Origin: Escherichia coli
GTDB lineage: Bacteria > Pseudomonadota > Gammaproteobacteria > Enterobacterales > Enterobacteriaceae
Reading direction: 5' to 3' (one strand)
DNA: 64,000 nucleotides
NCBI RefSeq assembly: GCF_003790525.1
Contig: NZ_CP033635.1
Made by a program: the position numbers and the translations under genes. Below, one piece after another: positions 12,787 to 40,530 of this stretch; within the stretch, counting starts at the first letter, position 1, and each line of letters begins with the position of its first letter. Under the pieces are notes generated by a model. The model made no database searches. It saw only the letters and a program-made list of their open reading frames with translations, and was not told where the DNA came from.

Positions 12787-15700
12787 TTATCCAGCGATAA
12801 TATAACTCCTAAGGTCATTACCCGGGGCAACAGCTCGCGCTCGCGTGTTTGCCAGCCGTTCAACTTGCTGCGGTACTCGTAGAGCAAAATCAAAGAAGGT
12901 GTCTTCAATACAGCGCCAGTAGCTAAGCCCCATGTCGAGCAGGACATAATGCTGACTGCCATCGCTGAAGGTGACTGTCAGTTCTCGTCCATGCTCCGTA
13001 CTCTGGTTATCCCCCGTTAACCAGCTAATTGCTCCCAGCCACGCTGGCCCCAGATATCCTTCTTCAAGTAAAGTGGTCACAACCTGCTGACGATCTTCCT
13101 CATTAAGCCACGCGTTATAGAGAGCGTCGTGTTGGCGAGAGTTGTAATCCAATTTTTTGACGCAAACAGTGAGGCTGGCGCGTTCCGCCATTCCCTGTTC
13201 AACCAGCTCAGTTAAGATTTCACCTAACAAACGCGCCGTGAATGGGCTATTAAGATAACGATCGCTGTACTCAACATGCGTTATCTCTTTGTGGCGGGTA
13301 AATGCCTGCTTCCAGCCAGCGTGCTGTTGCGTGACTAACGACCAGAAACGCGAACCAAAACCTTCCAGCGGCCCGTCCAGTTGTTCGCAGAGATTGATGC
13401 GCACCGCCCCGGTGGGTAAGGCGGGCAGTAAATCTTCTGCACTTAAGATCTGACCCAAGAAGGTTTTTCCGGACGTTCCTTTAAGTGTCACTACTGGTGA
13501 AGACGCACTTTGTCCCCATAATTCACCAGGTGCAACGGTAGCGCTGTCGTCTGCGGCCCACTGTTGGCTTTGCCCTTCGCGAGTCACCTGCGCAAGCCAG
13601 CGTCCCTTTCCTTGCATGAGTTGCGCAGTGGCAATGGATTTCACTTGTAAGCGTCCTCCCGGCATCGCCGCCAACGCGGAAAGCTGATGTCTGGAGCTAT
13701 CAGTTAAGTTTGCCAACGGCGTGGCCACCAGCAACTCAACATGCCCACCGGAGGAGGCAAACTGGAGCAACTCTTTAAATAATGGCCATTGGGCAAAATC
13801 CCACTGTTCCTGCGGCCCCGCAAGAACCAGCGAGCAGGAGTCATAAATCTCGCTGTTCAGGCATTGCGCAATACGTAAACTCAGCGGGTTAGTTTCAACC
13901 CGGCTACCATCGCCGAAGTACTGATATTCTGGCGCGAGGTTAAGTCGCTGCAACCGTACATTGGTAAGCAGGGTTAATGCATGGTGACGATCTAATCTGT
14001 TGACATAATGCTGACTGTCGTAGCTGAGCAAGCAGTGGTGACAGAATTTATCGCAACTGCAATCGAGCAATTTTCTGGCGTAATTAAAGACATCAGCCCA
14101 ATGGTCGATCAATTGCACTGCATAACCTGCACCACCCGCATTATTGTCGTAAATGAAGATGGAATATCCGGTATAGCCATTGATATCGCGCGCTTGCTGC
14201 GTCGTCACGCCCAGCTCAGTATTTTCGATACCCAATTTATGCGCTAACCCTTCACGCAAAGCGACCGCAAGGGATCGCGCGGCAACCTCATCACGGATCA
14301 ACAGGCCATTATCATCATTGAGTTGCAGCTCAACCATATCTGTACGACTGCTATACCCCAACCACAGATCTTTATGCACATGACCGTGGCACAATTTATT
14401 GCTCCCCTGACGATCGTTACTGCCCCCTCGCAACAGGTAATGCGTATTTTCCCTCTCTGGGTTCTTAAGATTTTCAGGGGTACGCTGGGGTTGATTTTGA
14501 GATTCTGCCCGACCACATGAGAGGCAAATTGCGTAGCCGTGCCCAAATTCCCCTTCACTGAAGTGGAACAATTCCCCACTATGGCTAAAACGGTAACGTC
14601 CTAGCCCAGCATCGGGTAAAGAAACCCACACCGAAGACGGTACAAGAACACGTGGATCTTTCCAGGGAAGTTGTGCAGGCATGGATACATCATTATGCGC
14701 CTGATAACGGATATCTGTCGCAAAACCAACAGGCTGTAAATAACGCTTCACATCAAGTTGCTGTATATCCGCTTTGCAGTGACTACATTCGACAGGACGG
14801 GTAGTACTGGTTGCCCCCGCACCACATTTACGACAATGCCAGAACCACGGAATATGATGATCGCCTGACAGCTCCTGCCCGCTGGCAAGTACCTTGCCAA
14901 GCATAATGCCCGAGGAACGATATACTTTTCCGCCCAATACCACATCTGCACCTGGAGCATACTCGCGTAATGCTGTAGGCAAATCACGGCTGGGCAATTT
15001 TTCAATACGACGAGAAAAGCTTTCTCCCCCTTCATTAGGGTCAGCCTGAGTGGCTTTTATTGCGCGACGTTTTTCCAGCTCATCTGCCGTCAGATAATTG
15101 AAATTGACGACGCCAACCGGGAAACCATGCCCCGGCAGGAACGCTTCACTAATGAGTTTAGAAAACAGATATGCACCGCGATAATCACGAAGCTGATAAG
15201 CGATGGCTTTACCTGCTGGCGTTTCTTCCCACGCGCTGTTATCCGCCTTCAACGCTTCGATATTTTCCAACAGTATCGCAAGTTGGCTTCTCCAGCGGAT
15301 ATCAACCTGCTGCATCATTGCTTGTGTGCGGGTCAAGAGCTGGGTTGCCGTCAATGACATCAGGACGGTTCCCTGAGTAAGGCGTTTAAGTTTATCCGCC
15401 AGCTGATCGGCCTGGTTATTTAACCAATGGAGAAAACGAAGACACTGGCTCTCATCACCTTCAAAGAACCATTTGCAACTCAGTTTTGTCGCATCAGGAA
15501 CTTCAGCTCGTAAAAACAGACCTAAAACCAGGGCATTAACATGTCGTTGAACAATACTGCTGCTCCCAAAACGAACCCGTGGCGCACTGGCAGTAGTGTT
15601 GAACGCCCAGAGGGGGTCTTTGAATACCTCCATTCCATGCGCCGTGTTTTTACATAACGTAATGGCAGCAGATGCACTCTCTCCACGTCGACCCGCGCGG

Positions 15701-18700
15701 CCTGCACGCTGCAAATAATTTGCCGGAGCTGGAGGAACGTTGTTCATTGCCACCAAACTCATACCACCAATGTCCACCCCCATCTCCATGGTCGTGGAGC
15801 AGTTCAGCACATTAACTTTGCCTGACTTAAATTGTTTTTCATTAAACTGGTTCTGCTCAGGCGTTCTCTGCGCAGAGTGTTCCTCCAGACGATACCAGCT
15901 ATCTTTCAGGGCCAGTCGGTCGCTGCGAGTAGACCATAATCCTTCCTCGCGGGCATGTTGAATCAGCGCATTACTTTCCAGCCACTCCAGACGTTCTTCT
16001 CGGGCGATTTCTCCACCACCAGACAAACGCCAGTGACGTACAGGAAGCTCAGGCATTTCAATCAACACTGCTTTTTCAGGTGCAATTTCTTTGCTACCCG
16101 GCAAATACGGAGAGTATCCCAGTAACGTGACGTCTAACGCACGTCGAGTATAGGGGCAACGCCACACTTGCTTTGGACTGTAAAATTCAGCTTGTTGTTT
16201 AATATCCAGCTGATAACCCGACTCAAACTGACGTAAGCAGGGTCGAATTGCATCCCAGACCTCAATCATTAAGTGGTTAACTAACGATTTCCAGTGAGCC
16301 TGCTCAGGTTGTATTGCCGGAAAGACTGCAATTAATAGCTTAATGACCCGGTTATAATGGCGATCGCGTATTTGTGGCCAAAGTTGATCACGTTTCTGCC
16401 CTTTGTTTTTTTTATCTGGACCCTGGAGCATTTTTACCGGGAAACGAGCCCCCATCCAGCGAGGGTATTGCTCGTTTTCGTAAAAAACGGCACTGTTTTC
16501 ACGTATAAAGAAATCAAGAGTAATCTTCAATAAATTACGCCATTCCGCTAATTGCTTATCGGGATCGGGTAATAATGTCTTCCAGTCCTGCGGGCAGGTT
16601 GTAACTTTATCAATAAATGGATAGTGAATGGCTACCAGACCCAGACTTTCGAGGGTCCAGGCATTTTTAGGGCGGCGACCAAACTCACTGTATAAACAAA
16701 AATCTGCAAACTGTTGTTTAGTAAGATCAAGCCCAGACAATTCTTTAAAACTGCCTCTCATTCTATCGGCAAGGTCCACACTGCCAACCAGCTGTTCAGA
16801 CAGTGTTTGCCATGACATGGTTTTCTTCTGCTGATTGCCAGAGTTAGCCTGGAGTATTTGCATCGCTTCAGCATGATCCGGGCTTAAGGAACTCACCATC
16901 GGCTCGATAATTTTAAGTGCCTGAATGTCCGCCGGGCTAAGCTCTTCATTAGCAACCATCGCTTTTTTCAGCGCGTCAATAGAGTTTTTTAAAGGAAGGA
17001 TAGAAAACTGGGTAATAAAACTCTCTAACAATGCGCAGTGTGCCGGGCTGAGCTTTGCTGATGGCTCATTAATATTGGCCAACTCCTGGTAACAAAGAGC
17101 TCGCAACGTCGCTTTATCGGCATCCTGCTGTAAGCGGGCAGAAATGCGGGCAGTGCCCTGACGTGAATCCGTAAAGGTGAGCAGACGTCGACCATTAAAC
17201 GGTCCTAACTGCTCTTCTCTTGTCTGCGGTAATGGTGAAAACTCCAGCAGAGTAGGAATAATTTCATTTAAAAAAAAGGGCGCGCCAAGTCGAAGCGGAC
17301 GGAATAAAGGATTATTTTTTCGTTGGGTGTCACCACAGCAAACACAAGCAAAGGAATTATTACGTCCCTCACCTCGAGATTCCGGTCTTAACAGGTTTAT
17401 TTCATAGTGCTTTTGCGCTTCACTATCAATTTTCCCCGCCGTCGTTTCTTCCAGAGAAATGATATATTTTTCACCATCGATCGCAATCAGACGATCAAAT
17501 TGAGAGTTATTGTCTAATTCGTCGTTGTCTTCATCTTCAGAATAAACATCTACATCAAGAGCAAATTCATCCACTTCGGCAGCGGCGGGTTGCGCTACCA
17601 ACCAGTTCGTTCCATCACCGCGCACCTCCTCTTTGGCAGACAAATAAGCTGAACCACACCCGGAGCAACGTAAAACTTCAAATACCGGCGCACCACAGTC
17701 ACAATATTGGCGCTGCTCAAACCATACCTGACCAAATGGCCAGTCACTCTGATTTAATTCATGCGCTTTATGTGAGCATTGTTTGTTTGAACATGCCCAT
17801 AGACCCGCCAGTGTTCTGATAAACCCATGCATACGTAATGGCGTAAAAGCCAGTTCACCTTCTCGCGATCTCGCCATTAGGTCGAGGAGTTGCAGTAACT
17901 CACGGTGATTAATATCTGGCCAGGTTCTTCTGGCAACATTGAGCAACTCACTCAAACGTACTGCCTGCCGTCCGGGATGAGTTAACGCCTGACGCAATTG
18001 CTGGGCCACACGGTAATGACAAAGCTGTTGGTAAAGATCCTGAGGGCTCAAAGATTTAAGAGAAGTTAAAGATGTGGGATATTCATGACGAATCAGCGAC
18101 TCCGATACCCGCGGTATTTGTCGATAGCCGCGAACCACTTTGACATCACGTTCTGTAACGCCCGCGAGATCAGCGACAAATTTAGCAAGCTCCTTATTAC
18201 CTTCAGGAGAGTCTTCACCAATAGTGGCAGAGGTCGCGATAATCTGCACAGGTTTATCTGTGCCCGGTCCAACATTGAAAGCCTGCATAACACGACGTAA
18301 AAGCAGCGCTAACTCAGCAGCCTGAGAACCAATATAACTATGGGCTTCATCCAGGACGATATACTTTAACATCCCCTGAGACTTTTCGATGATTGGGGCA
18401 TCTTTACGACGAATCAGCATATATTCCAGCATGGTGGTATTCGTCACCATGATGGAAGGTGGTGCTTCGTAAATGGCTTCCCGACTCAAAGCTTGTTCAG
18501 GTACTTTCAACTGATCTTCCTGAACTTCGTATTTGGTATGCCGGGTTTCGCCATTATATAGCGCGAAGCGTATTTTCCCCTTAAATCCGCGCGTCCATTC
18601 GCGAAGCCGCTCCTGTTGGCTGTTAATTAATGCATTTAACGGATACAAGAAAATAGCTTGTGTCCCTGTTAGTGACTGACGGGTCGATTTTTGCTGACGA

Positions 18701-19110
18701 ATAAGATCTTCCAGAACCGGTACCATAAAGCATTCTGTTTTCCCGGATCCCGTACCGCTGCTCACTAACAAGGATTTTTTGTCTTCCAGAATCGTTCGCC
18801 ACGCCGTAAGTTGATGACGAAATGGCACCGGCGCTTTGCTCAATGCATCAACCAGCGGGCTGGAAATTAGCTTGTCCCGCAAATCCTCCATTGTTTCATC
18901 CGCAGGCATCCAGCCGAACGTGCTTTCGAATACCGGGTCTGCAAGCAGTGACCCCTCCTGACCGGGAGGCTGGAAATATTGTGATTCCAGATAATGAGTC
19001 AACGACTTGCTCCGCAATGCCAACTGACTTACCACCGACCTCACCGCGCGCTGATGAAGCTGATTTAGAAGTGGCGCATAATGCAGTTGCTGAACGTCCA
19101 TCAATGACAT
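12787..19110 (-). CDS. druE: DruE-like large helicase (Druantia type III-like)
   Basis: 2107 aa ORF with Walker A SSGTGSGKTECFM, DEAH-type box VLDEAHSY and a C-terminal Cys-rich region (CLSCG..., CSCDKFCHHC). Overlaps the upstream gene by 10 nt. Confidence 0.6.
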   Translation of the reverse strand: MSLMDVQQLHYAPLLNQLHQRAVRSVVSQLALRSKSLTHYLESQYFQPPGQEGSLLADPVFESTFGWMPADETMEDLRDKLISSPLVDALSKAPVPFRHQLTAWRTILEDKKSLLVSSGTGSGKTECFMVPVLEDLIRQQKSTRQSLTGTQAIFLYPLNALINSQQERLREWTRGFKGKIRFALYNGETRHTKYEVQEDQLKVPEQALSREAIYEAPPSIMVTNTTMLEYMLIRRKDAPIIEKSQGMLKYIVLDEAHSYIGSQAAELALLLRRVMQAFNVGPGTDKPVQIIATSATIGEDSPEGNKELAKFVADLAGVTERDVKVVRGYRQIPRVSESLIRHEYPTSLTSLKSLSPQDLYQQLCHYRVAQQLRQALTHPGRQAVRLSELLNVARRTWPDINHRELLQLLDLMARSREGELAFTPLRMHGFIRTLAGLWACSNKQCSHKAHELNQSDWPFGQVWFEQRQYCDCGAPVFEVLRCSGCGSAYLSAKEEVRGDGTNWLVAQPAAAEVDEFALDVDVYSEDEDNDELDNNSQFDRLIAIDGEKYIISLEETTAGKIDSEAQKHYEINLLRPESRGEGRNNSFACVCCGDTQRKNNPLFRPLRLGAPFFLNEIIPTLLEFSPLPQTREEQLGPFNGRRLLTFTDSRQGTARISARLQQDADKATLRALCYQELANINEPSAKLSPAHCALLESFITQFSILPLKNSIDALKKAMVANEELSPADIQALKIIEPMVSSLSPDHAEAMQILQANSGNQQKKTMSWQTLSEQLVGSVDLADRMRGSFKELSGLDLTKQQFADFCLYSEFGRRPKNAWTLESLGLVAIHYPFIDKVTTCPQDWKTLLPDPDKQLAEWRNLLKITLDFFIRENSAVFYENEQYPRWMGARFPVKMLQGPDKKNKGQKRDQLWPQIRDRHYNRVIKLLIAVFPAIQPEQAHWKSLVNHLMIEVWDAIRPCLRQFESGYQLDIKQQAEFYSPKQVWRCPYTRRALDVTLLGYSPYLPGSKEIAPEKAVLIEMPELPVRHWRLSGGGEIAREERLEWLESNALIQHAREEGLWSTRSDRLALKDSWYRLEEHSAQRTPEQNQFNEKQFKSGKVNVLNCSTTMEMGVDIGGMSLVAMNNVPPAPANYLQRAGRAGRRGESASAAITLCKNTAHGMEVFKDPLWAFNTTASAPRVRFGSSSIVQRHVNALVLGLFLRAEVPDATKLSCKWFFEGDESQCLRFLHWLNNQADQLADKLKRLTQGTVLMSLTATQLLTRTQAMMQQVDIRWRSQLAILLENIEALKADNSAWEETPAGKAIAYQLRDYRGAYLFSKLISEAFLPGHGFPVGVVNFNYLTADELEKRRAIKATQADPNEGGESFSRRIEKLPSRDLPTALREYAPGADVVLGGKVYRSSGIMLGKVLASGQELSGDHHIPWFWHCRKCGAGATSTTRPVECSHCKADIQQLDVKRYLQPVGFATDIRYQAHNDVSMPAQLPWKDPRVLVPSSVWVSLPDAGLGRYRFSHSGELFHFSEGEFGHGYAICLSCGRAESQNQPQRTPENLKNPERENTHYLLRGGSNDRQGSNKLCHGHVHKDLWLGYSSRTDMVELQLNDDNGLLIRDEVAARSLAVALREGLAHKLGIENTELGVTTQQARDINGYTGYSIFIYDNNAGGAGYAVQLIDHWADVFNYARKLLDCSCDKFCHHCLLSYDSQHYVNRLDRHHALTLLTNVRLQRLNLAPEYQYFGDGSRVETNPLSLRIAQCLNSEIYDSCSLVLAGPQEQWDFAQWPLFKELLQFASSGGHVELLVATPLANLTDSSRHQLSALAAMPGGRLQVKSIATAQLMQGKGRWLAQVTREGQSQQWAADDSATVAPGELWGQSASSPVVTLKGTSGKTFLGQILSAEDLLPALPTGAVRINLCEQLDGPLEGFGSRFWSLVTQQHAGWKQAFTRHKEITHVEYSDRYLNSPFTARLLGEILTELVEQGMAERASLTVCVKKLDYNSRQHDALYNAWLNEEDRQQVVTTLLEEGYLGPAWLGAISWLTGDNQSTEHGRELTVTFSDGSQHYVLLDMGLSYWRCIEDTFFDFALRVPQQVERLANTRARAVAPGNDLRSYIIAG

Positions 19111-22100
19111 ACTCCTGCTTGTTCAAAATAATATTGATAGATTACCCCTAATTGCTGCGGGGCTTGCTGATAGTGGAATTCAAAAAGCGCAGACAGTTGA
19201 TGTATCAAGTTATTATCTTTTTGGGTTAACAGCGCTGCGACTAACATCAAATTAAAACGTTTTTCAAGCCGTGAGTGATATTTATTTTTAATCCAAAGCT
19301 TATTAAAAACAGATTTTAACTCTGGAGTAATCGCACTAGACCAAAGTTCTTTAGGGAAGATACTGATACGCCCAAAGCTGTCGGGGTTCCTTAATAGCAT
19401 CTGTTTAGCTTCATTAAACTGCTCACGACTAACAGTTGGCAAGACATTACAACCGGCTGGTAGGAGTTTGCTATATGTAAGTAACATATTCGCAATGGGA
19501 GCCAGACGACGATCGATATGTGCACGATGGTTCATAAAAGCAATAAAGGGTTGCAATATATGTAATGCTAATGTTTTATCGTTAATCTGTTTTTCCAGAT
19601 AAGCCCAACACTTTTGAAAAACATCTTTCCAGATTGAAACGGGAATCCATCCCCATGAAAAGGGTAATTCTTCCTGTATATCATAAATCGTATCGCTATC
19701 ACCAGAAAGACATGATGATATTAACAACTGAACAACTACGCGGTAATTACTCGAAATACCTCTGAACAAATCCAGATCCAGCAAGGATAAGCCATTATTC
19801 ATTTTGTATTTCTTAATATACTCCGTTAATAAACAGCAATAATTTTGCAAAGGATTGTTATCTATTTCAAAAATTAGCTCATTAAAATATTTTTTTCGCT
19901 GTTCGGAATCCGCTTCGCATAGAGCATTAAGTAATAAATCATTTGTCTGTAATACAGGTAGCCCCCATTTAATTACTGGTGCAATGCGAGCTGTACCATC
20001 AAGTTTCCCCACAATTAACCATGGGCTATCCTGAACATTCAGAGCTGAAAGATCATAAGCAAATTCATCTTTTTTTAGCAACGATATGTGTAAGCCAGGA
20101 TCCTTAAGAGAAATAGCATCAACAACCAGCTCGTCTATTCTATTTGCAGGAAAAACAACAGAATTTTTTATATCAACCAGTAACCCTTGATCGTGTTCAA
20201 TAAAACTACCATCGTAGCGTTTAATACTGAGTGTTGCTTTATCCTTTCCAAATCTGTCAGAGTAAAAATCAACACATAATGTACTATTGCTGCTCCATGC
20301 ACATGCCAGCATAGCATTTAGCAAATTATAGTTCTCATAAAGTGAAATTTGTTTTAATTTGTCATTGCATCCTGATAAAAGAGGAAGGTCGGCATGTAAA
20401 TAACGGAATTTTTCAGCTACTGGATTTTCATCCAACAACTCGATATTAAGATATCCTCTTCCAGCACAAGATATGGTTAACAACTCAGCATCTATTCCAT
20501 GCAAATGCGCTATAGATGCCACACCATCAAAATGAACAGAACCATCATGAGTTACAAATCGGCCACCGCTAACCGGCTTAGGTAATAATAGTTTAAGATT
20601 AGAACCATCTTTCCAGGAGACCCGTAAATCAACGGTATTTTCCAGCATCTCCGATGAATTATAATAAATAGCACACTCGTTTTGTGAATAATCGGACTTA
20701 AGTGTTACTTTTTCATTGTTTGAATATTTGTCAATTCTAGTATCCGTTATACCAGAAAGCATTATGATGCCTTGCTGAGCACTCTCAGGTATAATATTAA
20801 TATCGAAGTCAGCTGGTAAAACTACAACTTTACCGCTAAATAAAACCTCATCATTAACTATTCGTCTGACTTCTATCTGTCCTTTTGGCATTTTTGATGC
20901 GACAGAATACCAGGCATTGTTACCTGAACGAATGGAACGCCAAAAAAGTTCTTTCTCCGGTACAATGCCATATTGCAGATCCTTTTTCCAACCGATCTTC
21001 GGCCAGGCTCGATGGACAGGATAATCCGATTTAACCAGTTCAACTTCTGTCGATTTAATATAATATTCAATCGCAGAATCATAAAGTTGCTGGGTGCGAA
21101 TTGTACAAACTGCACCATCATGTAAAACAACGCTAAATACTCCACTTATTTTAGTTAAGCTGCGTTCACTGTTTTTCAGCAACCTTGGGATATCAAACTC
21201 ACCTTCTCCACTAATATCTAAATGGCTATTTTTCGGTAGCGAAATAAACAGAGCATTTAGCCTGGAACTCACAGACCCCATACCGACAAGTTTTAGCTGC
21301 GATTCACTCTCATTCATCGCTTCAAAAACCCAGGGGAGTTCTTCAGTAAGTTCATAACCGCCTTTTGGAATTGTGTGGCCTAACAGAATTGGACCTTCAT
21401 GAAGCGACAACGAGATTTCGGCCATTGCATCTGCACCAGAGAGCTTTTGCATCGCAATAGGTAATAACTCGACCCGCCAATCTTGCTGCTCATAACGGCT
21501 TAGCATTGCCAACCTTGCCCCGCCATTTCTCCATTTTCCTGAAATGATGAGTCGGGTCTGCTCCGGCTGAATATTGCATTCAAACAAAGAGGTTAACTGT
21601 TCTGTACGCATTGTGGCCGGGAATCGGAACCGGGCATCACAATACCAACTGTCATCAACATCGACCCAGATTCTTTCAACCTGAAGACTACTTGCACTGC
21701 GTATTTCAGAAGATTGAGAAAGTAATCGCCTTACAATCTCTGCAGCATTCGCTTCGGGGAGAACGAGTGGAAGTTGAAGGTGCCAGTCTGGAGAGAGCTT
21801 ACGTAATGCAGAAACGGGATCACTGCTTTGAGGTGGATGCTCACTAAGTAATCGGCAGAGAGTCTCGCAGAATTCACCGGCTATTTCATAGACCAGTTCG
21901 TTTTGCATTGTGACAGGAATCGTATCGCCTAATTCTTGTGCAATTTTAGCGGCAGGATATTGAGATGCTTGCCCACGAAGCGCCTGATATATCCTTCTGA
22001 AATAGGTAATCAAATAACCGCTCTCATTTTCAATCATGCGGATAGGTAAACCACCTTCACAAGCCAGTGTATGCAGATAACCCGAAGCTTGCCCCAGGTT

Positions 22101-22460
22101 TCTTATCTTTCTTTTCCAGTAGCGAATGCCATCATTAACCAGCTTCTGTCGATGAACATACGGAACTTTCCAGTCAATAGAATCTAAAATTGTGTCCCAT
22201 TTAGGGTGTCCGACCGTATGAGTCCGGCGGATAAACTCTGCGGCATATATGCTAAATAGAACATCGCTATAGGAAATGAATATCGTTCTTGGATAACTAC
22301 GGGGGGCATATGTACGCAGTAGTTCTGCCAAACTTTCGTACTCTGTATCAGTACAACGGTAAGCATATAACGCCCGTCCATCAGCTCCGGATAATGAACG
22401 GCGACTAAAAAACATGTTAAGCCATTGCAAAAGTGGGTTAACTGGAGTTTTCACAAGCAA
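19101..22460 (-). CDS. druH: Large protein of unknown function, DruH-like (partner of DruE)
   Basis: 1119 aa ORF immediately upstream of and overlapping the DruE-like gene, AT-rich. Assignment is by size and context only; no catalytic motif recognised. Confidence 0.45.
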   Translation of the reverse strand: MLVKTPVNPLLQWLNMFFSRRSLSGADGRALYAYRCTDTEYESLAELLRTYAPRSYPRTIFISYSDVLFSIYAAEFIRRTHTVGHPKWDTILDSIDWKVPYVHRQKLVNDGIRYWKRKIRNLGQASGYLHTLACEGGLPIRMIENESGYLITYFRRIYQALRGQASQYPAAKIAQELGDTIPVTMQNELVYEIAGEFCETLCRLLSEHPPQSSDPVSALRKLSPDWHLQLPLVLPEANAAEIVRRLLSQSSEIRSASSLQVERIWVDVDDSWYCDARFRFPATMRTEQLTSLFECNIQPEQTRLIISGKWRNGGARLAMLSRYEQQDWRVELLPIAMQKLSGADAMAEISLSLHEGPILLGHTIPKGGYELTEELPWVFEAMNESESQLKLVGMGSVSSRLNALFISLPKNSHLDISGEGEFDIPRLLKNSERSLTKISGVFSVVLHDGAVCTIRTQQLYDSAIEYYIKSTEVELVKSDYPVHRAWPKIGWKKDLQYGIVPEKELFWRSIRSGNNAWYSVASKMPKGQIEVRRIVNDEVLFSGKVVVLPADFDINIIPESAQQGIIMLSGITDTRIDKYSNNEKVTLKSDYSQNECAIYYNSSEMLENTVDLRVSWKDGSNLKLLLPKPVSGGRFVTHDGSVHFDGVASIAHLHGIDAELLTISCAGRGYLNIELLDENPVAEKFRYLHADLPLLSGCNDKLKQISLYENYNLLNAMLACAWSSNSTLCVDFYSDRFGKDKATLSIKRYDGSFIEHDQGLLVDIKNSVVFPANRIDELVVDAISLKDPGLHISLLKKDEFAYDLSALNVQDSPWLIVGKLDGTARIAPVIKWGLPVLQTNDLLLNALCEADSEQRKKYFNELIFEIDNNPLQNYCCLLTEYIKKYKMNNGLSLLDLDLFRGISSNYRVVVQLLISSCLSGDSDTIYDIQEELPFSWGWIPVSIWKDVFQKCWAYLEKQINDKTLALHILQPFIAFMNHRAHIDRRLAPIANMLLTYSKLLPAGCNVLPTVSREQFNEAKQMLLRNPDSFGRISIFPKELWSSAITPELKSVFNKLWIKNKYHSRLEKRFNLMLVAALLTQKDNNLIHQLSALFEFHYQQAPQQLGVIYQYYFEQAGVCH

Positions 22461-22671
22461 CCTGCCTTCCTTTGATACAATTCGTAACAGGTTACTATCA
22501 TCATAAAAAAGCTCAACCCGATGAACTCGCTAAAAATGAGACAAATCATTTATATCTCGAAAAAACTTGTTACAATCATGAGCGCTACACCGAACTTAAC
22601 CATATAAATTATGTGTGTTTTGTTTATTTTTTAAACAATTACAACTATCCATTATTTACACAGGTATCAAA

Positions 22672-24324
22672 ATGTTAGCGCAGCTTTTTGAGCAGTTGTT
22701 TCAATCGATAGACTCTACACTGATCACCAATATTTTCATCTGGGCTGTTATATTCGTATTTTTATCAGCGTGGTGGTGTGACAAAAAAAATATACATAGT
22801 AAGTTTAGAGAATATGCTCCAACCTTAATGGGGGCATTAGGTATTCTGGGTACTTTCATTGGTATTATTATTGGGTTACTCAATTTTAATACTGAAAGTA
22901 TTGATACCAGCATCCCCGTATTATTAGGCGGCCTAAAAACAGCATTCATTACAAGCATTGTAGGTATGTTTTTTGCCATTTTATTTAATGGAATGGATGC
23001 TTTCTTTTTTGCCAATAAACGAAGTGCGTTAGCAGAAAATAACCCTGAATCTGTTACACCTGAACATATCTATCATGAATTAAAAGAGCAGAACCAGACT
23101 CTGACTAAATTAGTCTCGGGTATTAACGGTGATAGTGAAGGTTCTCTTATTGCTCAAATAAAATTACTACGTACTGAGATTAGCGATTCCTCGCAGGCAC
23201 AATTAGCTAATCACACTCATTTCAGTAATAAGCTTTGGGAACAACTTGAACAATTTGCAGATCTAATGGCAAAAGGTGCTACAGAACAAATTATTGATGC
23301 TTTACGACAAGTCATTATTGATTTTAATGAAAATTTAACTGAACAGTTTGGTGAAAACTTTAAAGCACTTGATGCCTCTGTAAAAAAACTTGTTGAGTGG
23401 CAGGAAAATTATAAAACGCAAGTTGAGCTGATGTCAGAACAATATCAACAAAGTGTCGAGTCTCTGGTTGAAACAAAAACTGCGGTTGCCGGGATTTGGG
23501 AAGAATGTAAAGAAATTCCTCTGGCTATGTCTGAACTGCGTGAAGTGCTTCAGGTGAACCAACATCAAATCAGCGAACTCTCCCGCCATTTAGAAACCTT
23601 TGTCGCCATCCGCGATAAAGCTACAACCGTATTACCTGAAATACAGAACAAAATGGCTGAAGTGGGTGAACTGCTGAAATCCGGAGCTGCAAATGTTAGT
23701 GCATCTCTTGAGCAAACCAGCCAGCAAATACTTCTTAATGCAGATTCAATGCGCGTGGCCCTGGATGAAGGTACCGAAGGATTCAGACAATCGGTTACCC
23801 AAACACAACAAGCATTTGCCTCGATGGCACATGATGTCAGCAATTCCTCCGAAACTCTAACCAGCACGTTAGGTGAAACAATTACTGAAATGAAACAAAG
23901 TGGTGAAGAATTCCTGAAGTCACTAGAGTCGCACTCGAAAGAATTGCATAGAAATATGGAACAAAATACGACTAATGTAATTGATATGTTCAGTAAGACT
24001 GGTGAAAAGATTAACCATCAACTATCCAGTAATGCCGATAATATGTTTGATTCAATCCAGACATCATTTGATAAGGCAAGTGCAGGGCTGACTTCTCAAG
24101 TCAGAGAATCAATTGAAAAATTTGCTCTATCCATCAACGAGCAGTTACATGCTTTTGAGCAAGCAACTGAACGTGAGATGAACCGTGAAATGCAATCATT
24201 AGGTAATGCTCTGCTTTCAATCAGCAAAGGTTTTGTCGGTAACTATGAAAAACTTATTAAAGATTACCAAATAATTATGGGGCAGTTACAAGCATTAATT
24301 TCTGCTAATAAACATCGAGGGTAA
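22672..24324 (+). CDS. zorA: ZorA-like MotA/ExbB-family membrane protein with long coiled-coil tail (Zorya type II-like)
   Basis: N-terminal hydrophobic helices (IFIWAVIFVFLSAWW, LMGALGILGTFIGIIIGLL, AFITSIVGMFFAILF) followed by about 400 aa of Q/E/L-rich coiled coil. The internal ATG at 22672 is preferred over the track start at 22615. Confidence 0.6.
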   Translation: MLAQLFEQLFQSIDSTLITNIFIWAVIFVFLSAWWCDKKNIHSKFREYAPTLMGALGILGTFIGIIIGLLNFNTESIDTSIPVLLGGLKTAFITSIVGMFFAILFNGMDAFFFANKRSALAENNPESVTPEHIYHELKEQNQTLTKLVSGINGDSEGSLIAQIKLLRTEISDSSQAQLANHTHFSNKLWEQLEQFADLMAKGATEQIIDALRQVIIDFNENLTEQFGENFKALDASVKKLVEWQENYKTQVELMSEQYQQSVESLVETKTAVAGIWEECKEIPLAMSELREVLQVNQHQISELSRHLETFVAIRDKATTVLPEIQNKMAEVGELLKSGAANVSASLEQTSQQILLNADSMRVALDEGTEGFRQSVTQTQQAFASMAHDVSNSSETLTSTLGETITEMKQSGEEFLKSLESHSKELHRNMEQNTTNVIDMFSKTGEKINHQLSSNADNMFDSIQTSFDKASAGLTSQVRESIEKFALSINEQLHAFEQATEREMNREMQSLGNALLSISKGFVGNYEKLIKDYQIIMGQLQALISANKHRG

Positions 24325-24330
24325 TCGATC

Positions 24331-25038
24331 ATGGATAAGATTATAGGGAAACAATTACCTAAAAAAGATCAAGATAATGAACACTGGGTATCCATGTCAG
24401 ACCTAATGGCAGGGCTGATGATGGTTTTTATGTTCATATCTATTGCTTATATGCACTACGTACGTATTGAAAAAGAAAAAATTAAAGAAGTTGCCGTAGC
24501 CTACGAGAATGCTCAGTTACAGCTTTATAATGCTCTGGATATTGAGTTTGCAAAGGATTTGCAAGACTGGGATGCAGAGATCGATAAGCAGACTCTGGAG
24601 GTTCGATTTAAATCACCGGATGTTTTATTTGGCTTAGGAAGCACAGAGCTTAAACCAAAGTTTAAACTCATTCTTGACGACTTCTTTCCTCGCTACCTAA
24701 AAGTTCTTGATAATTATCAAGAACATATTACTGAAGTCCGCATTGAAGGTCACACAAGTACTGACTGGACTGGAACAACGAATCCTGATATTGCTTATTT
24801 TAATAATATGGCACTATCACAAGGTCGTACACGTGCAGTATTACAATACGTTTATGATATAAAAAATATCGCGACACACCAACAATGGGTTAAAAGTAAA
24901 TTTGCCGCAGTAGGTTATTCATCTGCACATCCCATTCTTGATAAAACCGGCAAGGAGGATCCTAATCGCTCTCGTCGTGTCACCTTCAAAGTTGTAACAA
25001 ATGCCGAGTTGCAGATTAGAAAGATTATTCAGGAGTAA
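24331..25038 (+). CDS. zorB: ZorB-like MotB/OmpA-family protein
   Basis: Single N-terminal transmembrane segment (LMAGLMMVFMFISIAYM) and a C-terminal OmpA-like peptidoglycan-binding signature (EGHTSTDWTG...ALSQGRTRAVLQYV). Starts 6 nt after the zorA-like stop. Confidence 0.65.
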   Translation: MDKIIGKQLPKKDQDNEHWVSMSDLMAGLMMVFMFISIAYMHYVRIEKEKIKEVAVAYENAQLQLYNALDIEFAKDLQDWDAEIDKQTLEVRFKSPDVLFGLGSTELKPKFKLILDDFFPRYLKVLDNYQEHITEVRIEGHTSTDWTGTTNPDIAYFNNMALSQGRTRAVLQYVYDIKNIATHQQWVKSKFAAVGYSSAHPILDKTGKEDPNRSRRVTFKVVTNAELQIRKIIQE

Positions 25039-25041
25039 GAG

Positions 25042-26145
25042 ATGAAATTATCTATCGACATTTCAGAACTTATTCAATTAGGGAAGAAAATGTTACCAGA
25101 AGGAGTCGATTTTTTTCTGGATGAATCCCCTATTGACTTTGATCCTATAGATATTGAGTTATCCACGGGTAAAGAAGTTAGTATCGAAGATCTTGACCCT
25201 GGTAGCGGGCTAATCTCTTATCATGGCCGCCAGGTTCTTTTATATATTAGGGACCATTCAGGGCGTTATGATGCGGCTATCATCGATGGCGAAAAAGGAA
25301 AACGTTTTCATATTGCCTGGTGCAGAACTCTTGATGAAATGCGCCATAAAAATCGATTTGAAAGGTATCATGCAACTAACCGCATAGATGGTTTATTCGA
25401 AATTGATGATGGTTCAGGCCGGAGCCAGGATGTTGATTTACGGGTATGTATGAATTGTCTGGAACGACTTAATTACAAAGGAAGTATTGATAAACAAAGG
25501 AAAAGAGAGATTTTTAAATCATTCTCATTAAATGAGTTTTTTTCAGATTATAGTACCTGTTTTCGTCATATGCCTAAGGGTATCTATGACAAAACAAATA
25601 GTGGGTATGTCGAAAACTGGAAAGATATATCAAAATCAATACGAGAAAAGGCCAAGTATACTTGTAATGATTGTGGTGTGAATTTATCAACCGCCAAAAA
25701 CTTGTGCCATGTCCATCATAAAAATGGCATCAAATATGATAATCACCATGAAAACCTTCTTGTTCTGTGTAAGGATTGCCATCGTAAACAGCCCCTCCAT
25801 GAAGGTATATTCGTTACCCAAGCTGAGATGGCTATCATTCAACGTTTACGTTCCCAACAAGGGTTATTAAAAGCCGAATCCTGGAATGAAATATATGACC
25901 TGACTGATCCATCAGTACATGGTGATATTAATATGATGCAACATAAAGGCTTTCAACCTCCTGTTCCTGGGTTAGATCTTCAAAACTCAGAACATGAAAT
26001 TATTGCAACCGTAGAAGCAGCATGGCCAGGCCTTAAAATTGCAGTTAACCTTACTCCCGCCGAAGTCGAAGGATGGAGAATATATACCGTGGGTGAGCTG
26101 GTTAAAGAAATACAAACAGGAGCCTTTACGTCAGCAACGTTGTAA
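25042..26145 (+). CDS. zorE: ZorE-like HNH endonuclease
   Basis: HNH motif CNDCGVNLSTAKNLCHVHHKNGIKYDNHHENLLVLCKDCH. Starts 3 nt after the zorB-like stop. Confidence 0.6.
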   Translation: MKLSIDISELIQLGKKMLPEGVDFFLDESPIDFDPIDIELSTGKEVSIEDLDPGSGLISYHGRQVLLYIRDHSGRYDAAIIDGEKGKRFHIAWCRTLDEMRHKNRFERYHATNRIDGLFEIDDGSGRSQDVDLRVCMNCLERLNYKGSIDKQRKREIFKSFSLNEFFSDYSTCFRHMPKGIYDKTNSGYVENWKDISKSIREKAKYTCNDCGVNLSTAKNLCHVHHKNGIKYDNHHENLLVLCKDCHRKQPLHEGIFVTQAEMAIIQRLRSQQGLLKAESWNEIYDLTDPSVHGDINMMQHKGFQPPVPGLDLQNSEHEIIATVEAAWPGLKIAVNLTPAEVEGWRIYTVGELVKEIQTGAFTSATL

Positions 26146-26354
26146 ATTCCGAAACTCCGTGAAAGTTAAGACTTTCACGGAAGATAAATAAAATTTTCCT
26201 GATTTGTGACTCAAATTACAAAAGTCGTTTATGGCATAACTTGTCTGTTTTTTTGGTGTAATAGGTATAAAGGCATATGCTATGGTTAGCCTTATATTTA
26301 AAACTTTCCTCATACGGGTGAAGGTTAAAGCTTGGTAGATAGGTTACAGTCACA

Positions 26355-26853
26355 ATGAATAAAGCAATAACGGTGCTTGCTATAATGATGGCTTCATTTT
26401 CCGTAAATGCGTATGTATTACCGGAAACGCCTGTGCCATTTAAAAGTGGTACCGGAGAAATTGATAACAACACTGTCTACATTGGTTTAGGTAGCGCAGG
26501 TACGGCATGGTACAAGCTGGAGAAACAGACCAAAGATAAAAAAATGGACAGCGTTAGCTGCATTTCCTGGTGGACCGAGAGATCAAGCAACCTCTGCATT
26601 TATTGATGGCAATCTGTATGTGTTTGGCGGCATTGGCAAAAACAGCGAGGGCTTGACTCAGGTATTTAATGACGTACACAAATACAACCCCAAAACCAAT
26701 AGCTGGGTTAAATTGATGTCGCACGCGCCGATGGGCATGGCGGGTCATGTGACATTTGTACACAACGGCAAGGCTTATGTTACTGGCGGTGTTAACCAGA
26801 ATATCTTCAACGGCTATTTTGAAGATCTTAACGAAGCTGGAAAAGATTCAACA
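26355..26853 (+). pseudogene. nanM: nanM (N-acetylneuraminate epimerase, Kelch repeat) remnant: frameshifted and 3'-truncated
   Basis: N-terminal signal peptide and Kelch-repeat sequence closely resemble E. coli NanM. The frame breaks in the A8 run at about 26541-26548 (nanM-like sequence continues in another frame), and similarity ends after ...NEAGKDST at about 26853. Confidence 0.7.
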
Positions 26854-26971
26854 TACCGAACGCCGGAGAACTGGACGACGACACCACGAAGCAGTCATTT
26901 CAGTCGGGGGATGATTGTAGACAAATTTGTTGACGCTATTTTGCGGTTTTGGCGTGAAGGGTGAGCATTCA

Positions 26972-27613
26972 TTAATTTGCATCCATCAACGCTTTTAACT
27001 GCTCCGGCGAAAACGGTGGTTTGCGTCGGTGCAACATCGCATGGCAATTAGGGCACACAGGAAGCAAATCATTAACTGGATCCAGCTGGTAATCCTCTTT
27101 AATGGCTGAAAGCGGCACCAGGTGATGCATATGGATAAAACCCTCAGCGATATCGCCATAGATCTTCACCAGATCAACGCCGCATACGTTGCACTGGCAT
27201 CCATGATGTTCGACCGCTTTATCTCGGGCCTTTTTATCGCGTTCATAGCGGTTTACTGTCACCTTTATCGCCGCACCTTCAACGTATGTCTCCTGCGACG
27301 GCAACTCATCCGGGAACAGAACGTCGGCTATGGGAGCCGCAGCGGCTTTATCCTGATGAATATGAAATCCCTGCTCTATGAGTAGTTTGACGCATTTAGA
27401 TTTTATTCCGCCGGTGAAATCCGCAGGGGTAAATTGCGTCCCCGTCATCAATGTCGCTGCGATGCCAGCAATCGCCTTCGAGGGGTAACGTCGGCCATGA
27501 TATTCAATCTTATACAACCGCGCAGGCTGGAACTGATGAGTTTCTCCCGCATCCCATAAATGGATAGCTTCGATGATATACCGCCGCGGAAGATGATCGG
27601 GGAGTTTATTCAT
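26972..27613 (-). CDS. HNH endonuclease-domain protein with unassigned N-terminal domain
   Basis: 213 aa ORF with C-terminal HNH-type motif CQCNVCGVDL...HMHHLVPL...PVCPNCHAMLH. Divergent from the next gene. Confidence 0.5.
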   Translation of the reverse strand: MNKLPDHLPRRYIIEAIHLWDAGETHQFQPARLYKIEYHGRRYPSKAIAGIAATLMTGTQFTPADFTGGIKSKCVKLLIEQGFHIHQDKAAAAPIADVLFPDELPSQETYVEGAAIKVTVNRYERDKKARDKAVEHHGCQCNVCGVDLVKIYGDIAEGFIHMHHLVPLSAIKEDYQLDPVNDLLPVCPNCHAMLHRRKPPFSPEQLKALMDAN

Positions 27614-27692
27614 GGAGAATGTCCTTATACGTTCTCAGAACAGGCAGCAAAAAAACAAATGAGATCAAGGTAATATATCTTCACTTGCAGGC

Positions 27693-28622
27693 TTGAACAG
27701 CAGAAAATTTGCGAGCATGATCGCAACTATTTCACTGCCAGGGATATCAATGGCTTCCAGTAAATCGCTACAGCAGGCAATCGCCAATATAAAAATCTGG
27801 CACAAGGGTGAACAGCGCGCGCCGCATAAACCATTGTTACTGCTATACGTATTAGCGGGATACCTGAATGGGCATCCGCGCCTTTTCGATTATGGATTGG
27901 AAATCTACGAACCTCTGCACAATTTACTGGAACGTTTTGGGCCACAGCGTTCACAGTACCGACCTGATATGCCGTTCTGGCGATTACAAGGCGACGGATT
28001 CTGGCAATTACACAATGCCGAGCTTTGCTCAACAGCAGGGAGCAGCCGACAACCGCCAGTGAAGGAACTGAACGAATACCACGTTGCAGGCGGTTTCGAT
28101 GAACAGCACTACGCCCTGGTAACCGGCAATAAAAAACTCATCAATACTCTGGCGCAACAGATACTCGAAGCGCACTTCACCGAGAGTATTCAGGAAGAAA
28201 TTGCTGACGAGCTGGGTTTTGATCTCCAGCAAATCCGTAAACAGCGTGACCCGTTATTTCGCAAAAATGTATTACGCGCTTATAACTACCAGTGCGCGAT
28301 ATGTGGCTTTAATATGCGCCACGACGACACCACCGTCGCGCTGGAAGCGGCGCATATAAAATGGAAACAGCACGGCGGTCCTTGTGAAATTCCTAATGGC
28401 CTGGCGCTTTGCGCAATTCACCATAAAGCCTTTGATAAAGGATCGATTGGCCTGGATGAAAATATGCGGGTACTGGTCTCGGATGCGGTAAACGGCGGAG
28501 GGATCGTTGAGAGATTATTCTGGGATTTTGATGGGAAAACTATTGCGTTGCCACAGGTGCGTAAAAATTACCCTTTTGAGGGGTTTGTGGAGTGGCATCG
28601 AAAAGAGGTTTTTAGGGGGTGA
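27693..28622 (+). CDS. HNH endonuclease-domain protein with unassigned N-terminal domain (candidate modification-dependent nuclease)
   Basis: 309 aa ORF with C-terminal HNH-like motif YQCAICGFNMRHDDTTVALEAAHIKW...LALCAIHHKAFD. The N-terminal roughly 180 aa are of unknown fold. Confidence 0.5.
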   Translation: MNSRKFASMIATISLPGISMASSKSLQQAIANIKIWHKGEQRAPHKPLLLLYVLAGYLNGHPRLFDYGLEIYEPLHNLLERFGPQRSQYRPDMPFWRLQGDGFWQLHNAELCSTAGSSRQPPVKELNEYHVAGGFDEQHYALVTGNKKLINTLAQQILEAHFTESIQEEIADELGFDLQQIRKQRDPLFRKNVLRAYNYQCAICGFNMRHDDTTVALEAAHIKWKQHGGPCEIPNGLALCAIHHKAFDKGSIGLDENMRVLVSDAVNGGGIVERLFWDFDGKTIALPQVRKNYPFEGFVEWHRKEVFRG

Positions 28623-39054: not shown

Positions 39055-39229
39055 AACATTCTCCCTCTGAGACGGAAGCCACTATAGTACTCGCCCGCCA
39101 ATTAAGCAAAGAAACTTTGCTTAATTTTTATTTATAGCAATGTTATTTGTTTTGATGTCATTCGCCTTCTATACTCAGTCGGTATATCAAACCGCAATTG
39201 ATTAACCTGCAAATAAGAATAAAACTGAT

Positions 39230-40123
39230 ATGTACTACTCAAAGTTTCTTGAGAAACACAAATCCCCCCTCAGCCACGCACAATGGTTGCGCTTGCGCTA
39301 TATTGAGCGCCAGCTACTGTGGGAACGAAAGGTCACTTCGCGCATGATTGCTGAAGAGTTTGGCGTCTCGGCGCAACAAGCTCGTACTGATGTAAGAACC
39401 TATATGGAGGTCGCTCCAGGCAATGCTATTGAGAAGGGGGCCGGCCGAAAAGGGTATTTCCCCAGTACGACGTTTACGCCTGTTTTGCTGGGAGACAACG
39501 ATCTGGTCTGGCGTACGACGGTAGAATTTCAACCGCCGCAAGCGGCCCACGCGCAGGAAATCCCGCTCATCCATCGCGCAGTGCATAGCCGCACGCTGGC
39601 AATTTTTTTGTCAGCAATCGAACAGAAAGGACAAGTAAAAGTGACTTATGCGTCAATGGAAAACCCGGAAGGCATATCTCGTACACTAAGCCCTACGGTA
39701 ATTATCACCGTTAACGGGCGTCAGCATGTGCGAGCCTATGACTGGGGAAGTTCGGCGTTTAAGGACTTTGTTTTGGCGCGATTTCTGGACTTGCCGGAAC
39801 TGATTGTTCCTGCACCCGCCCCGCCACGCAAAGATACCGCGTGGGAGGTCATAATCCCCGTGCGTTTTATAGCCAATCCAACACTAAACAAAGCGCAACA
39901 AGAGGTAATTAAGCGGGACTATTTACTTGAACCCTCTGAATTCAACATTCGTGCACCAATGATTTTTTATTTATGCCCTGAAAACAATCTGCCTAAAACA
40001 GATGATGAATATGCACAAGCTACTGACGCCAGCAGCCACGGCCCCTTTATCTACCCTGTTCTAGCTGTGCACGCCCAAACAGGGGAGCCTATTCATAAGT
40101 ACCGCCATGCAGGTGAGAGATAG
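39230..40123 (+). CDS. Candidate HTH/WYL-domain transcriptional regulator, divergent from the Wadjet operon
   Basis: 297 aa ORF with an N-terminal HTH-like segment (SRMIAEEFGVSAQQARTDVRTY) and a central region resembling a WYL domain. Divergently transcribed from the jetA-like gene with a 175-bp shared intergenic region. Confidence 0.4.
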   Translation: MYYSKFLEKHKSPLSHAQWLRLRYIERQLLWERKVTSRMIAEEFGVSAQQARTDVRTYMEVAPGNAIEKGAGRKGYFPSTTFTPVLLGDNDLVWRTTVEFQPPQAAHAQEIPLIHRAVHSRTLAIFLSAIEQKGQVKVTYASMENPEGISRTLSPTVIITVNGRQHVRAYDWGSSAFKDFVLARFLDLPELIVPAPAPPRKDTAWEVIIPVRFIANPTLNKAQQEVIKRDYLLEPSEFNIRAPMIFYLCPENNLPKTDDEYAQATDASSHGPFIYPVLAVHAQTGEPIHKYRHAGER

Positions 40124-40269
40124 ACATTCTGTTTACTAATAATTTATAGCCATTCACTGTTCCTGCATCATAGATATGGTGCAGCAACATTAAACACCAG
40201 CCATCTAAAAATTATGATTTATTAATTTCTGATTCAGTTAAATTCCTCTGAAAATAGATCCGTTATAGT

Positions 40270-40530
40270 TCCATGCATCTTTTGAAATCCCGACCAAATA
40301 ATGGGGTCGGCAAACATCTATTTGAGACGTTGGTTCTCATCCTCAAGATCTTTGATTATTTTAATATCAGAAGATTCCATACCACCGTATCTGGACTTCC
40401 AGTTGTAGTAAGTGGCTCAGAGAAGCCTGCCTCCCGGCAGACATCTTTAACAGTTCGCCCGTATTCAAGCGATTTAATCACGGCGATAATCTGATGCTCA
40501 GTAAAAGGGGCTTTACGCATAGCGATCTCC
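40270..40530 (-). pseudogene. IS3-family transposase OrfA remnant (frameshifted and truncated)
   Basis: Minus-strand translation MRKAPFTEHQIIAVIKSLEYGRTVKDVCREAGFSE..., then a frame break, then ...DIKIIKDLEDENQRLK*. Only about 260 bp of the element remains. Confidence 0.5.

Follow-up and report, generated by a model that had tools for sequence, protein, structure and literature searches.

The nanM gene of Escherichia coli K-12 (yjhT, b4310) belongs to the nanCMS operon and encodes the periplasmic N-acetylneuraminate mutarotase. The NanM protein has the architecture of a six-bladed homodimer (PMC10017367). An array of type II Zorya, type III Druantia and ARMADA II is described in a preprint as conserved in the tRNA-Leu and tRNA-Phe islands of E. 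coli (bioRxiv 10.1101/2025.09.15.676423). In the window, by which we mean the whole analyzed stretch of 64,000 nt of E. coli DNA, this array is present immediately to the left of a short nan remnant, hereafter the stub, and the stub is homologous to the first 166 codons of K-12 nanM. The sections of the same preprint that were consulted make no mention of a nan remnant or of nan repeats flanking the array, and no description of the remnant was found in the literature on the nanM pseudogene, on nanC, or on Zorya, Druantia, fimB and nanS. The stub itself is already known as annotated, namely as an ordinary pseudogene remnant (RefSeq/PGAP), and it is to be seen as a passenger or as a relic of the junction and not as part of the defence system. 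Based on the comparisons presented here, the stub is best explained (with a probability of roughly 0.85) as what decay has left of the right-hand one of two direct nanM-nanS repeats, which bracket the ∼33-kb ARMADA II–Druantia III–Zorya II array.

This array lies in the left third of the window, as deduced from matches to the DruE, DruH and JetACD profiles, with DruE at 12787–19110, DruH at 19101–22460 and zorABE at 22615–26145. The part to the right of the stub contains an HNH endonuclease gene, a gene for a restriction endonuclease that acts on phosphorothioated DNA (PT-REase), genes for a NucS-like nuclease and a WYL regulator, a type III Wadjet system, a P4-like element, leuX (52979–53063) and then the core genes ahr and idnDOTR. 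The array and the stub are located in the leuX-fim variable region of E. coli. E. coli SMS-3-5 is a close relative of the strain from which the window derives, though not that strain itself, with 100% identity over 1–31299 and 32615–40323 and 99.9% identity over 39752–41647; the window differs by an IS1414 inserted at 31300–32614 and by another leuX-proximal element to the right of 41647. When the insertion was searched for through the IS1414/jetC junction (30900–33000), none of the complete genomes covered it. The segment 26146–27000 was 100% identical to SMS-3-5 (NC_010498.1, 4908429–4909283, minus strand), and the identical match was also observed in ∼15–16 further complete genomes. Genome counts refer throughout to a set of 5426 complete E. 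coli genomes.

The nanM fragment and its junctions

The fragment nanM' (26355–26853, plus strand) comprises the first 498 nt (166 codons) of nanM and one extra A, and it is annotated as a pseudogene. In SMS-3-5, a PGAP pseudogene has the same limits (ECSMS35_RS29560, 'Kelch repeat-containing protein; frameshifted; incomplete; missing C-terminus'). The nucleotide identity to the nanM genes of K-12 and SMS-3-5 was 95% over 518 nt, and residues 21–167 of the frame-repaired protein matched residues 2–148 of YjhT (PDB 2UVK) with E = 9e-95; the NanM homology of the retained part is far above chance. The first-pass annotation of this DNA had noted a NanM-derived reading frame that starts at 26355 and a NanM similarity that ends at 26853 (...NEAGKDST), and both are borne out by the PGAP limits, the 95% identity and the 2UVK match. 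The repaired product, together with the NanS-derived tail described below, scored under the cutoffs of both family profiles, with 257 versus 416 bits for NF010730 (NanM/YjhT family) and 203 versus 256 for TIGR03547. It covered only positions 6–177 of the 384 positions of NF010730, and the match to 2UVK extended over 148 of the 357 residues of the chain (∼41%), which is short of a complete six-bladed Kelch propeller of ∼350 mature residues. The nanM reading frame is interrupted, and the open reading frames are split into 26355–26606 and 26620–26964. According to these alignments, the fragment would encode at most the signal peptide and ∼2.5 of the six Kelch blades, and it is predicted to have no mutarotase function.

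The accessory DNA ends to the left of the fragment. The zorE gene (25042–26145, plus strand), with which the type II Zorya system ends, was identified with NCBIfam NF041791 (691 bits versus a cutoff of 600) and is annotated as zorE by PGAP in SMS-3-5. It is followed by a spacer of ∼180 nt (26146–26324, no strand assigned), which always accompanies zorE and whose right edge is the true accessory junction. Next comes a short stretch (26325–26354, plus strand) that holds a few terminal bases of nanC at its stop codon and the intergenic region between nanC and nanM, as determined by alignment to canonical nanC/nanM loci. These canonical loci align to the window only from 26325 (megablast) or 26335 (blastn), and the end of K-12 nanC and the intergenic region were also compared directly with the window. 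The block consisting of the zorE 3' end, the spacer and the start of nanM was found in 561–582 of the 5426 complete genomes (561 at ≥80% coverage), O157:H7 and O145 included, and the spacer is joined to zorE in EP91B and C289 as well. The boundary between island and core was thus placed at ∼26325–26335, with zorE and the spacer present in 582 of the 5426 genomes and the nanM side matched in 5084. When nanC coding sequence was sought in 26146–26334, only the last few codons before the stop were porin-like, and the frame was closed further upstream. The idea that the spacer is an identifiable degenerate 3' end of nanC was rejected because no convincing NanC coding was found. The order of the nanCMS operon is not preserved at the stub, where ∼10 nt around the nanC stop are left and zorE with its ∼180-nt spacer stands upstream. 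The fragment does lie at an accessory-region junction, as had been proposed, but this junction is the one on the left, where the zorE spacer meets the nanC stop, and not position 26853.

At position 26853, a junction of another kind was found. The BLAST segments of nanM and nanS overlap at TTCAAC (26847–26852), which identifies the breakpoint as an in-frame microhomology deletion. The microhomology at the nanM::nanS junction, TTCAAC(A), occupies 26847–26853 on the plus strand, and its counterparts read GATTCAAC in K-12 nanM and GGTTCAGC in K-12 nanS. The deletion joins nt 498 of nanM to nt ∼858 of nanS, and ∼1.53 kb is missing compared with K-12, namely nt 499–1107 of nanM, a 64-nt spacer and nt 1–∼857 of nanS. 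The sequence that follows, nanS' (26854–26964, plus strand), corresponds to the terminal ∼112 nt of a nanS allele that has diverged, with the C-terminal ∼37 codons and the stop codon (26962–26964). Over 26847–26966, the window and the terminal 130 nt of K-12 nanS are 76.5% identical in nucleotides, with a 12-nt indel. Translation continues in the NanM frame from ...GKDST directly into YRTPENWTTTPRSSHFSRGMIVDKFVDAILRFWREG and a stop, and the C-terminus of K-12 NanS reads ...GSAYRSPENWTTALRSSHFSTAARRGIISDRFVEAILQFWRER before its stop. In a PDB search, residues 156–201 of the fusion matched residues 287–336 (of 337) of NanS (PDB 3PT5, E = 2e-10); only these C-terminal ∼46 residues align to 3PT5, and the NanS esterase domain is not represented. 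Moreover, both pieces are annotated in CUPS05, where the equivalent nanS piece is labeled by PGAP as 'sialate O-acetylesterase, missing N-terminus'. The nanS 3' end therefore follows in frame at the very point after which all similarity had been said to be lost, as indicated by the 76% nucleotide identity, the 3PT5 match and the CUPS05 label. Position 26853 is a genuine deletion breakpoint, as the first-pass annotation had it, but the deletion is internal to nanM-nanS and does not mark cargo meeting core. With nan-operon DNA on both of its flanks, it is not an island/core boundary.

A small ythB-like open reading frame of 25 aa (26895–26972, minus strand) is antisense to the nanS tail and is annotated by PGAP as the hypothetical protein WP_212734751.1. 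It aligns with K-12 YthB (MNAHPSRQNRKIASTNLSTIIPRLK versus MNKLPAHLSRQNCKIASTNLSEIIPRRAAVLK), whose gene is likewise antisense to the nanS tail. The HNH endonuclease gene (26972–27613, minus strand) is the usual downstream neighbor of nanS, and the same gene follows nanS in ECO21. Its stop codon at 26972 lies past the nanS stop and overlaps the ythB-like frame, so the HNH gene cluster does not begin at the breakpoint, where it had been placed. The PT-REase gene (27750–28622, plus strand) was identified with NCBIfam NF045808 (437 bits versus a cutoff of 180). The start region of the HNH gene and the DNA upstream of it are 86% identical to the K-12 DNA just past nanS, and the longer segment 27585–28017, which contains the HNH start, the DNA upstream of HNH and the 5' part of the PT-REase gene, shows 86–89% identity to the K-12 DNA next to nanS; the PT-REase remnant of K-12 amounts to 248 nt at 88.7% identity. 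Part of the segment 26854–28700 was matched in 4886 of the 5426 complete genomes, and at least 80% of it in 325. HNH and PT-REase genes, or their remnants, adjoin nanS in these 4886 genomes, K-12 being one that keeps remnants. In ECO21, which has no array, the order is fimB-nanC-nanM-nanS-(ythB-like)-HNH-PT-REase, and the HNH and PT-REase flank of the window is 96% identical to that of ECO21. Since these genes adjoin nanS in array-free genomes, the HNH gene cluster is the normal nanS-distal neighbor. The HNH and PT-REase genes are an old nanS flank and not newly arrived cargo, and the earlier notion that core sequence was overwritten by defence cargo at 26853 has to be given up on the strength of the 4886 genomes and of ECO21.

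The adenine run and the frameshift

The frameshift site is an A7 homopolymer (26538–26544, plus strand), which was located by regular expression and is one A longer than the in-frame A6. It had correctly been noticed that the frame changes within an A run, and the run does carry one extra A (A6 to A7), but it is not the A8 at 26541–26548 that had been reported. The accompanying expectation that an A7 run would mean an intact nanM was mis-specified, since intact nanM carries A6. The A6 run was observed in K-12 nanM, in the resident nanM of SMS-3-5, in the nanM of GF4-3, in the L002 stub and in some sister stubs. A7 was counted in at least 60 complete genomes, compared with at least 14 for A6. 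For A7, 27 complete genomes matched a 95-nt probe at 100%, at least 33 more aligned to the whole probe with one SNP and without gaps, and the run was confirmed directly in CFSAN061763 and N3. For A6, the record span of at least 13 genomes is one base shorter, among them CFSAN061771, in which A6 was confirmed directly; CUPS05 is a further case, with an alignment gap at the run and a 498-nt nanM fragment that is not flagged as frameshifted. The A7 genomes are of varied laboratory, host and geographic origin. They fall into at least three haplotypes, and the A6 haplotype L002 has an A7 haplotype as its nearest relative. Because of this spread over haplotypes and of the kinship of L002, a clean split into an A7 clade and an A6 clade was rejected. 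The same two observations indicate that the run length probably changed in more than one event, or that it was transferred between haplotypes by recombination. The A7 run is a real polymorphism without functional consequence: the frameshift is irrelevant to function because the fragment is just as truncated in the A6 alleles, whose product is a 202-aa NanM(1–166)::NanS(C-terminal) fusion.

Two alternative explanations of the run have to be weighed at this point. The frameshift might be a homopolymer sequencing or assembly error, the true sequence being A6 and in frame. Single-base homopolymer errors are common in long-read assemblies, and A6 versions of the same stub do exist; nevertheless, this explanation is very unlikely, given that A7 recurs in 27 and at least 33 more complete genomes of varied origin on at least three haplotypes, and that SMS-3-5, a Sanger-era genome of 2008, stands against it as well. 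An error would in any case be immaterial, as the A6 product is still a truncated NanM::NanS fusion of 202 aa. It is scarcely credible that slippage at the A7 run, programmed or transcriptional, gives a functional NanM(1–166)::NanS(C-terminal) fusion. RNA polymerase can slip on poly-A runs, the nanM and nanS parts are joined in frame, and the 202-aa fusion frame retains a signal peptide. However, only ∼41% of the six-bladed propeller is present (148/357, 2UVK), NanS before residue 287 of 337 is absent, so that the catalytic part is missing, and nanC and the promoter region are absent too. In a promoter and terminator consensus scan of the stub, nothing above the shuffled expectation was observed, and the single weak promoter-like site (26166–26194) fell short of the number in shuffled sequence. 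The same copy has lost different parts in other lineages, which argues against constraint. Nor does the run behave like a programmed frameshift, with both A6 and A7 among near-identical stubs and with the region deleted outright in other lineages.

The second nan copy and the origin of the proposed right-hand repeat

SMS-3-5 carries an intact nanC and nanM (WP_012311657.1) beside fimB at 4942284–4944126. This copy, which has the orientation of the stub, lies 33 kb away from it on the far side of the array, and its position corresponds to ∼7 kb past the left edge of the window. The resident nanS of SMS-3-5 was found by direct translation to be an uninterrupted 326-codon open reading frame. Two nanM-homologous places were observed in all 30 of the stub-bearing genomes listed. 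The lineage had been described as one in which nanM was reduced to a stub; the intact nanC-nanM-nanS beside fimB in SMS-3-5, and the second nanM place in the listed stub-bearing genomes, contradict this. Judging from SMS-3-5 and the ∼16 genomes with an identical stub, an intact nanM is probably present and the mutarotase has very probably not been lost in the lineage of the window. Both SMS-3-5 copies carry the nanS tail and ∼45 nt past the tail, which indicates that ∼2.2 kb of nan DNA once flanked the array on either side as a direct repeat. A duplication that reached into the HNH and PT-REase genes was also considered and was rejected, because the resident copy shares only nanM, the nanS tail and the ∼45 nt beyond.

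The right-hand copy has met different fates in other lineages. In GF4-3, a full-length nanM of the canonical type directly follows zorE, gntP-fim-nanC is missing, and uxuA is joined to the array. The O157-type right-hand copy has lost nt 17–354 and everything from nt ∼600 to upstream of the PT-REase gene, including nanS and HNH, and it keeps nanM sequence past codon 166. In C289, a zorE'-nanM' fragment lies between copies of IS1 and IS5 in the pheV island. Such different lesions across lineages are the pattern that would be expected for a redundant copy under no selection.

The sequence of the right-hand copy bears on its source. The stub differs from K-12 or resident nanM at 13–15 of the first 189 nt and at 8–11 of the next 309 nt, and its nanM part is diverged by ∼5% or more from every canonical E. 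coli nanM. The nanS tail is 74–77% identical to the tail in ∼4900 genomes. A DNA scan with a degenerate protein motif across one-genome-per-species references detected the tail allele (RGMIVDKFVDAIL, which lacks 4 aa) only in E. whittamii (92.5% nucleotide identity) and Escherichia sp. E1V33. E. whittamii was rejected as the donor of the nanM part, as its nanM shows 83% identity to the stub and is too divergent. The CUPS05 stub has the same junction and tail with a nanM 5' end of the canonical type. Given a divergence of ∼5% in nanM and ∼24% in the tail, a simple recent in-situ duplication is insufficient, and introgression or gene-conversion patches are needed. We infer that patches of the copy were exchanged by recombination or conversion, and its nanS allele may have been introgressed.

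The remnant could also be a foreign passenger, that is, the nan locus of another Escherichia lineage brought in together with a mobile defence array. Consistent with such a source are the tail allele seen only in E. whittamii and Escherichia sp. E1V33 among the one-per-species references, the distance of at least 5% between the nanM part and every canonical E. coli nanM, the zorE'-nanM' piece in the pheV island, and the mobility of the array on MGEs at tRNA-Leu and tRNA-Phe that is reported in the preprint (bioRxiv 10.1101/2025.09.15.676423). We regard it as possible, though on balance unlikely, because the flank runs seamlessly into HNH and PT-REase genes of the E. coli type (96% to ECO21), the nanM of E. 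whittamii reaches only 83% identity to the stub, and canonical E. coli nanM sequence stands at the same junction in GF4-3 and CUPS05. This explanation overlaps with that of a decayed direct repeat and differs from it only in the origin of the right-hand copy. Far less probable is the proposal of the first-pass annotation, in which the lineage's own core nanM was destroyed by slippage and deletion where HNH-cluster cargo overwrote the core at 26853. The fragment is indeed nanM-derived, frameshifted and truncated, and the region is dense in defence genes. The DNA to the right of 26853 is nevertheless the nanS 3' end, the HNH and PT-REase genes are canonical nanS neighbors in array-free genomes, and SMS-3-5, whose sequence is identical here, has an intact nanC-nanM-nanS at a distance of 33 kb.

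If the stub is the decayed right-hand member of a direct repeat, the array would have become joined to a complete nanM-nanS-HNH flank, and homology-driven (Campbell-type) integration of a circular fragment containing the array and nanMS may have produced the duplication, or else unequal exchange. The order of events may also have been another one, with a GF4-3-like replacement allele first and a later re-acquisition of fim-nan; the comparison of GF4-3 with SMS-3-5 is compatible both with a deletion derivative and with an ancestral replacement allele. The redundant right-hand copy would then have decayed neutrally, its first loss being the ∼1.53 kb removed by the in-frame nanM/nanS microhomology deletion, and the A run may since have drifted between A6 and A7 by slippage.

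Significance and comparison with known systems

The biological weight of the stub is small, as it is a redundant gene copy in decay. The junction between zorE and the nanC stop, together with the lineage-specific deletions in the right-hand copy, provides markers for the ancestry and spread of the ARMADA-Druantia-Zorya array, including that of O157:H7. Duplicated core fragments within islands can mislead by-eye annotation, and the over-reading corrected here concerns both the mutarotase, which is very probably kept, and the HNH/PT-restriction pair, which is the old nanS flank. It is doubtful, although worth stating, that the nan copies serve as homology handles, through which the array would be gained by a single crossover that integrates a circular fragment bearing the array and nanMS, and lost by RecA recombination between the repeats. 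If they did, loss of the array would regenerate the canonical nanCMS-HNH locus, and the shrinking of the right repeat from ∼2.2 kb to ∼0.5 kb plus 0.1 kb would progressively lock the array in the chromosome. The conserved zorE-nanM junction, present in ∼10% of E. coli genomes, would in that case be a sign that defence islands are exchanged without an integrase, and repeats of this kind would bear on the gain, loss and stabilization of large defence arrays.

Among known processes, Campbell-type integration resembles this locus in that the array has ∼2.2 kb of nanM-nanS and ∼45 nt on either side of it, in direct orientation. Unlike a plain Campbell-type duplication, the repeats are 5–24% diverged and one of them is internally deleted; such integration is a candidate mechanism for the locus. 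Compared with K-12 nanM, which is the operon copy, the stub is a second copy. Its protein is nearly identical to K-12 NanM from residue 64 on, and the signal peptide is kept, as is the nanC-nanM intergenic region, whereas codons 167–368 are missing, the A6 run has an extra A, nanC is absent upstream, and a nanS tail is fused to the fragment. The annotated pseudogene ECSMS35_RS29560 of SMS-3-5 has the same sequence and coordinates as the stub, and equivalents are found in 95 other complete genomes; its annotation ends at 26853, leaves the nanS tail unlabeled and does not indicate that it is a second copy. The nanM fragment of the O157:H7 type (e.g., D8Z76_RS24900 in NZRM4169) and the GF4-3 nanM share with the window an identical junction of zorE, spacer and nanC stop, and these right-hand copies occupy the same place as the stub at the Zorya end of the Druantia/ARMADA array. 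They differ from the window in that the O157 type carries two other deletions and GF4-3 retains the whole of nanM.

Association of the nan remnant with zorE

The nan remnant of the window (26355-26964), a decayed second nanM–nanS copy, lies to the right of zorE, and the same junction was recognized in other strains. In strain C289, the island at pheV (tRNA-Phe) holds a truncated zorE, the spacer and a nanM fragment of 249 nt (positions 8324-9669 of the extracted locus, L016); this piece is flanked by IS1 and IS5 copies, and the nan locus is located far away. The presence of zorE and the nanM fragment together in the pheV island indicates that the nan fragment moves together with zorE. In GF4-3 (L012/L013), the array directly adjoins uxuA on one side and a full-length nanM on the other, and gntP, the entire fim operon and nanC are missing. 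Given the loss of the fim operon, GF4-3 should be without type 1 fimbriae.

Directly 3' of the zorE stop codon, a perfect-looking hairpin was found at 26150-26186 (CTCCGTGAAAGT-TAAG-ACTTTCACGGAAG). It was not among the output of the terminator scan, because it is not followed by a T-run. The hairpin may end the zorABE transcript ahead of the nan remnant.

nanS, ythB and the HNH gene

The resident nanS of SMS-3-5 (L004 20240-21220) was labeled by PGAP as 'incomplete, missing C-terminus' (567 nt), and its DNA translates without interruption as an ORF of 326 codons with 97.8% identity to K-12 nanS. The nanS genes of ECO21 and GF4-3 were similarly annotated as 'partial', and these labels, that of SMS-3-5 included, may be an annotation artefact tied to the overlapping ythB-like ORF. 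Escherichia whittamii has an intact nanM, with only the nanS tail behind it (∼70 codons, L010 1488-1703), of the same allele type as the window stub (RGMIVDKFVDAIL). That so short a tail follows nanM indicates that nanS was truncated independently in this species too.

The K-12 small-protein gene ythB (L003 8540-8700) was also compared with the window (27581-27709 and 26895-26972). Its first ∼5 codons (MNKLP), together with the promoter-proximal DNA, correspond to the beginning of the HNH gene, and the remainder is antisense to the nanS tail, so that K-12 ythB looks like a chimeric relic. Such a form would be expected if K-12 had lost the HNH body (∼630 nt) by deletion; alternatively, this body could have been inserted between short imperfect repeats in the window lineage.

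Defence array and leuX-proximal elements

The array is complete in the window (1-26145), with ARMADA II-type genes (a methyltransferase of 1640 aa and a helicase of 952 aa), DruE (12787-19110) and DruH (19101-22460) of Druantia III, and zorA, zorB and zorE of Zorya II. Further right, an IS1414 (IS256-family) copy is located at 31300-32614 inside jetC of the type III Wadjet, bounded by an 8-bp target duplication (GTCGGGTG, 31292-31299 and 32615-32622). In SMS-3-5, jetC is uninterrupted (an intact ORF of 1478 codons), and the insertion was found in none of the 5426 complete E. coli genomes of the collection. With jetC interrupted, the Wadjet of this isolate is probably inactive.

Within 40595-53063, an integrase fragment (40595-41275) precedes a P4-like element, which encodes a primase (42180-44513) and whose intact integrase (51562-52827) abuts leuX (52979-53063, minus strand); this part differs from SMS-3-5. 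The array at 1-26145 is the tripartite array that a preprint (bioRxiv 10.1101/2025.09.15.676423) reports as conserved. The preprint also describes a pattern in which an active element adjoins tRNA-Leu and an older, immobilised element is located further out; the window fits this pattern, with its intact integrase at leuX and the integrase fragment farther off.
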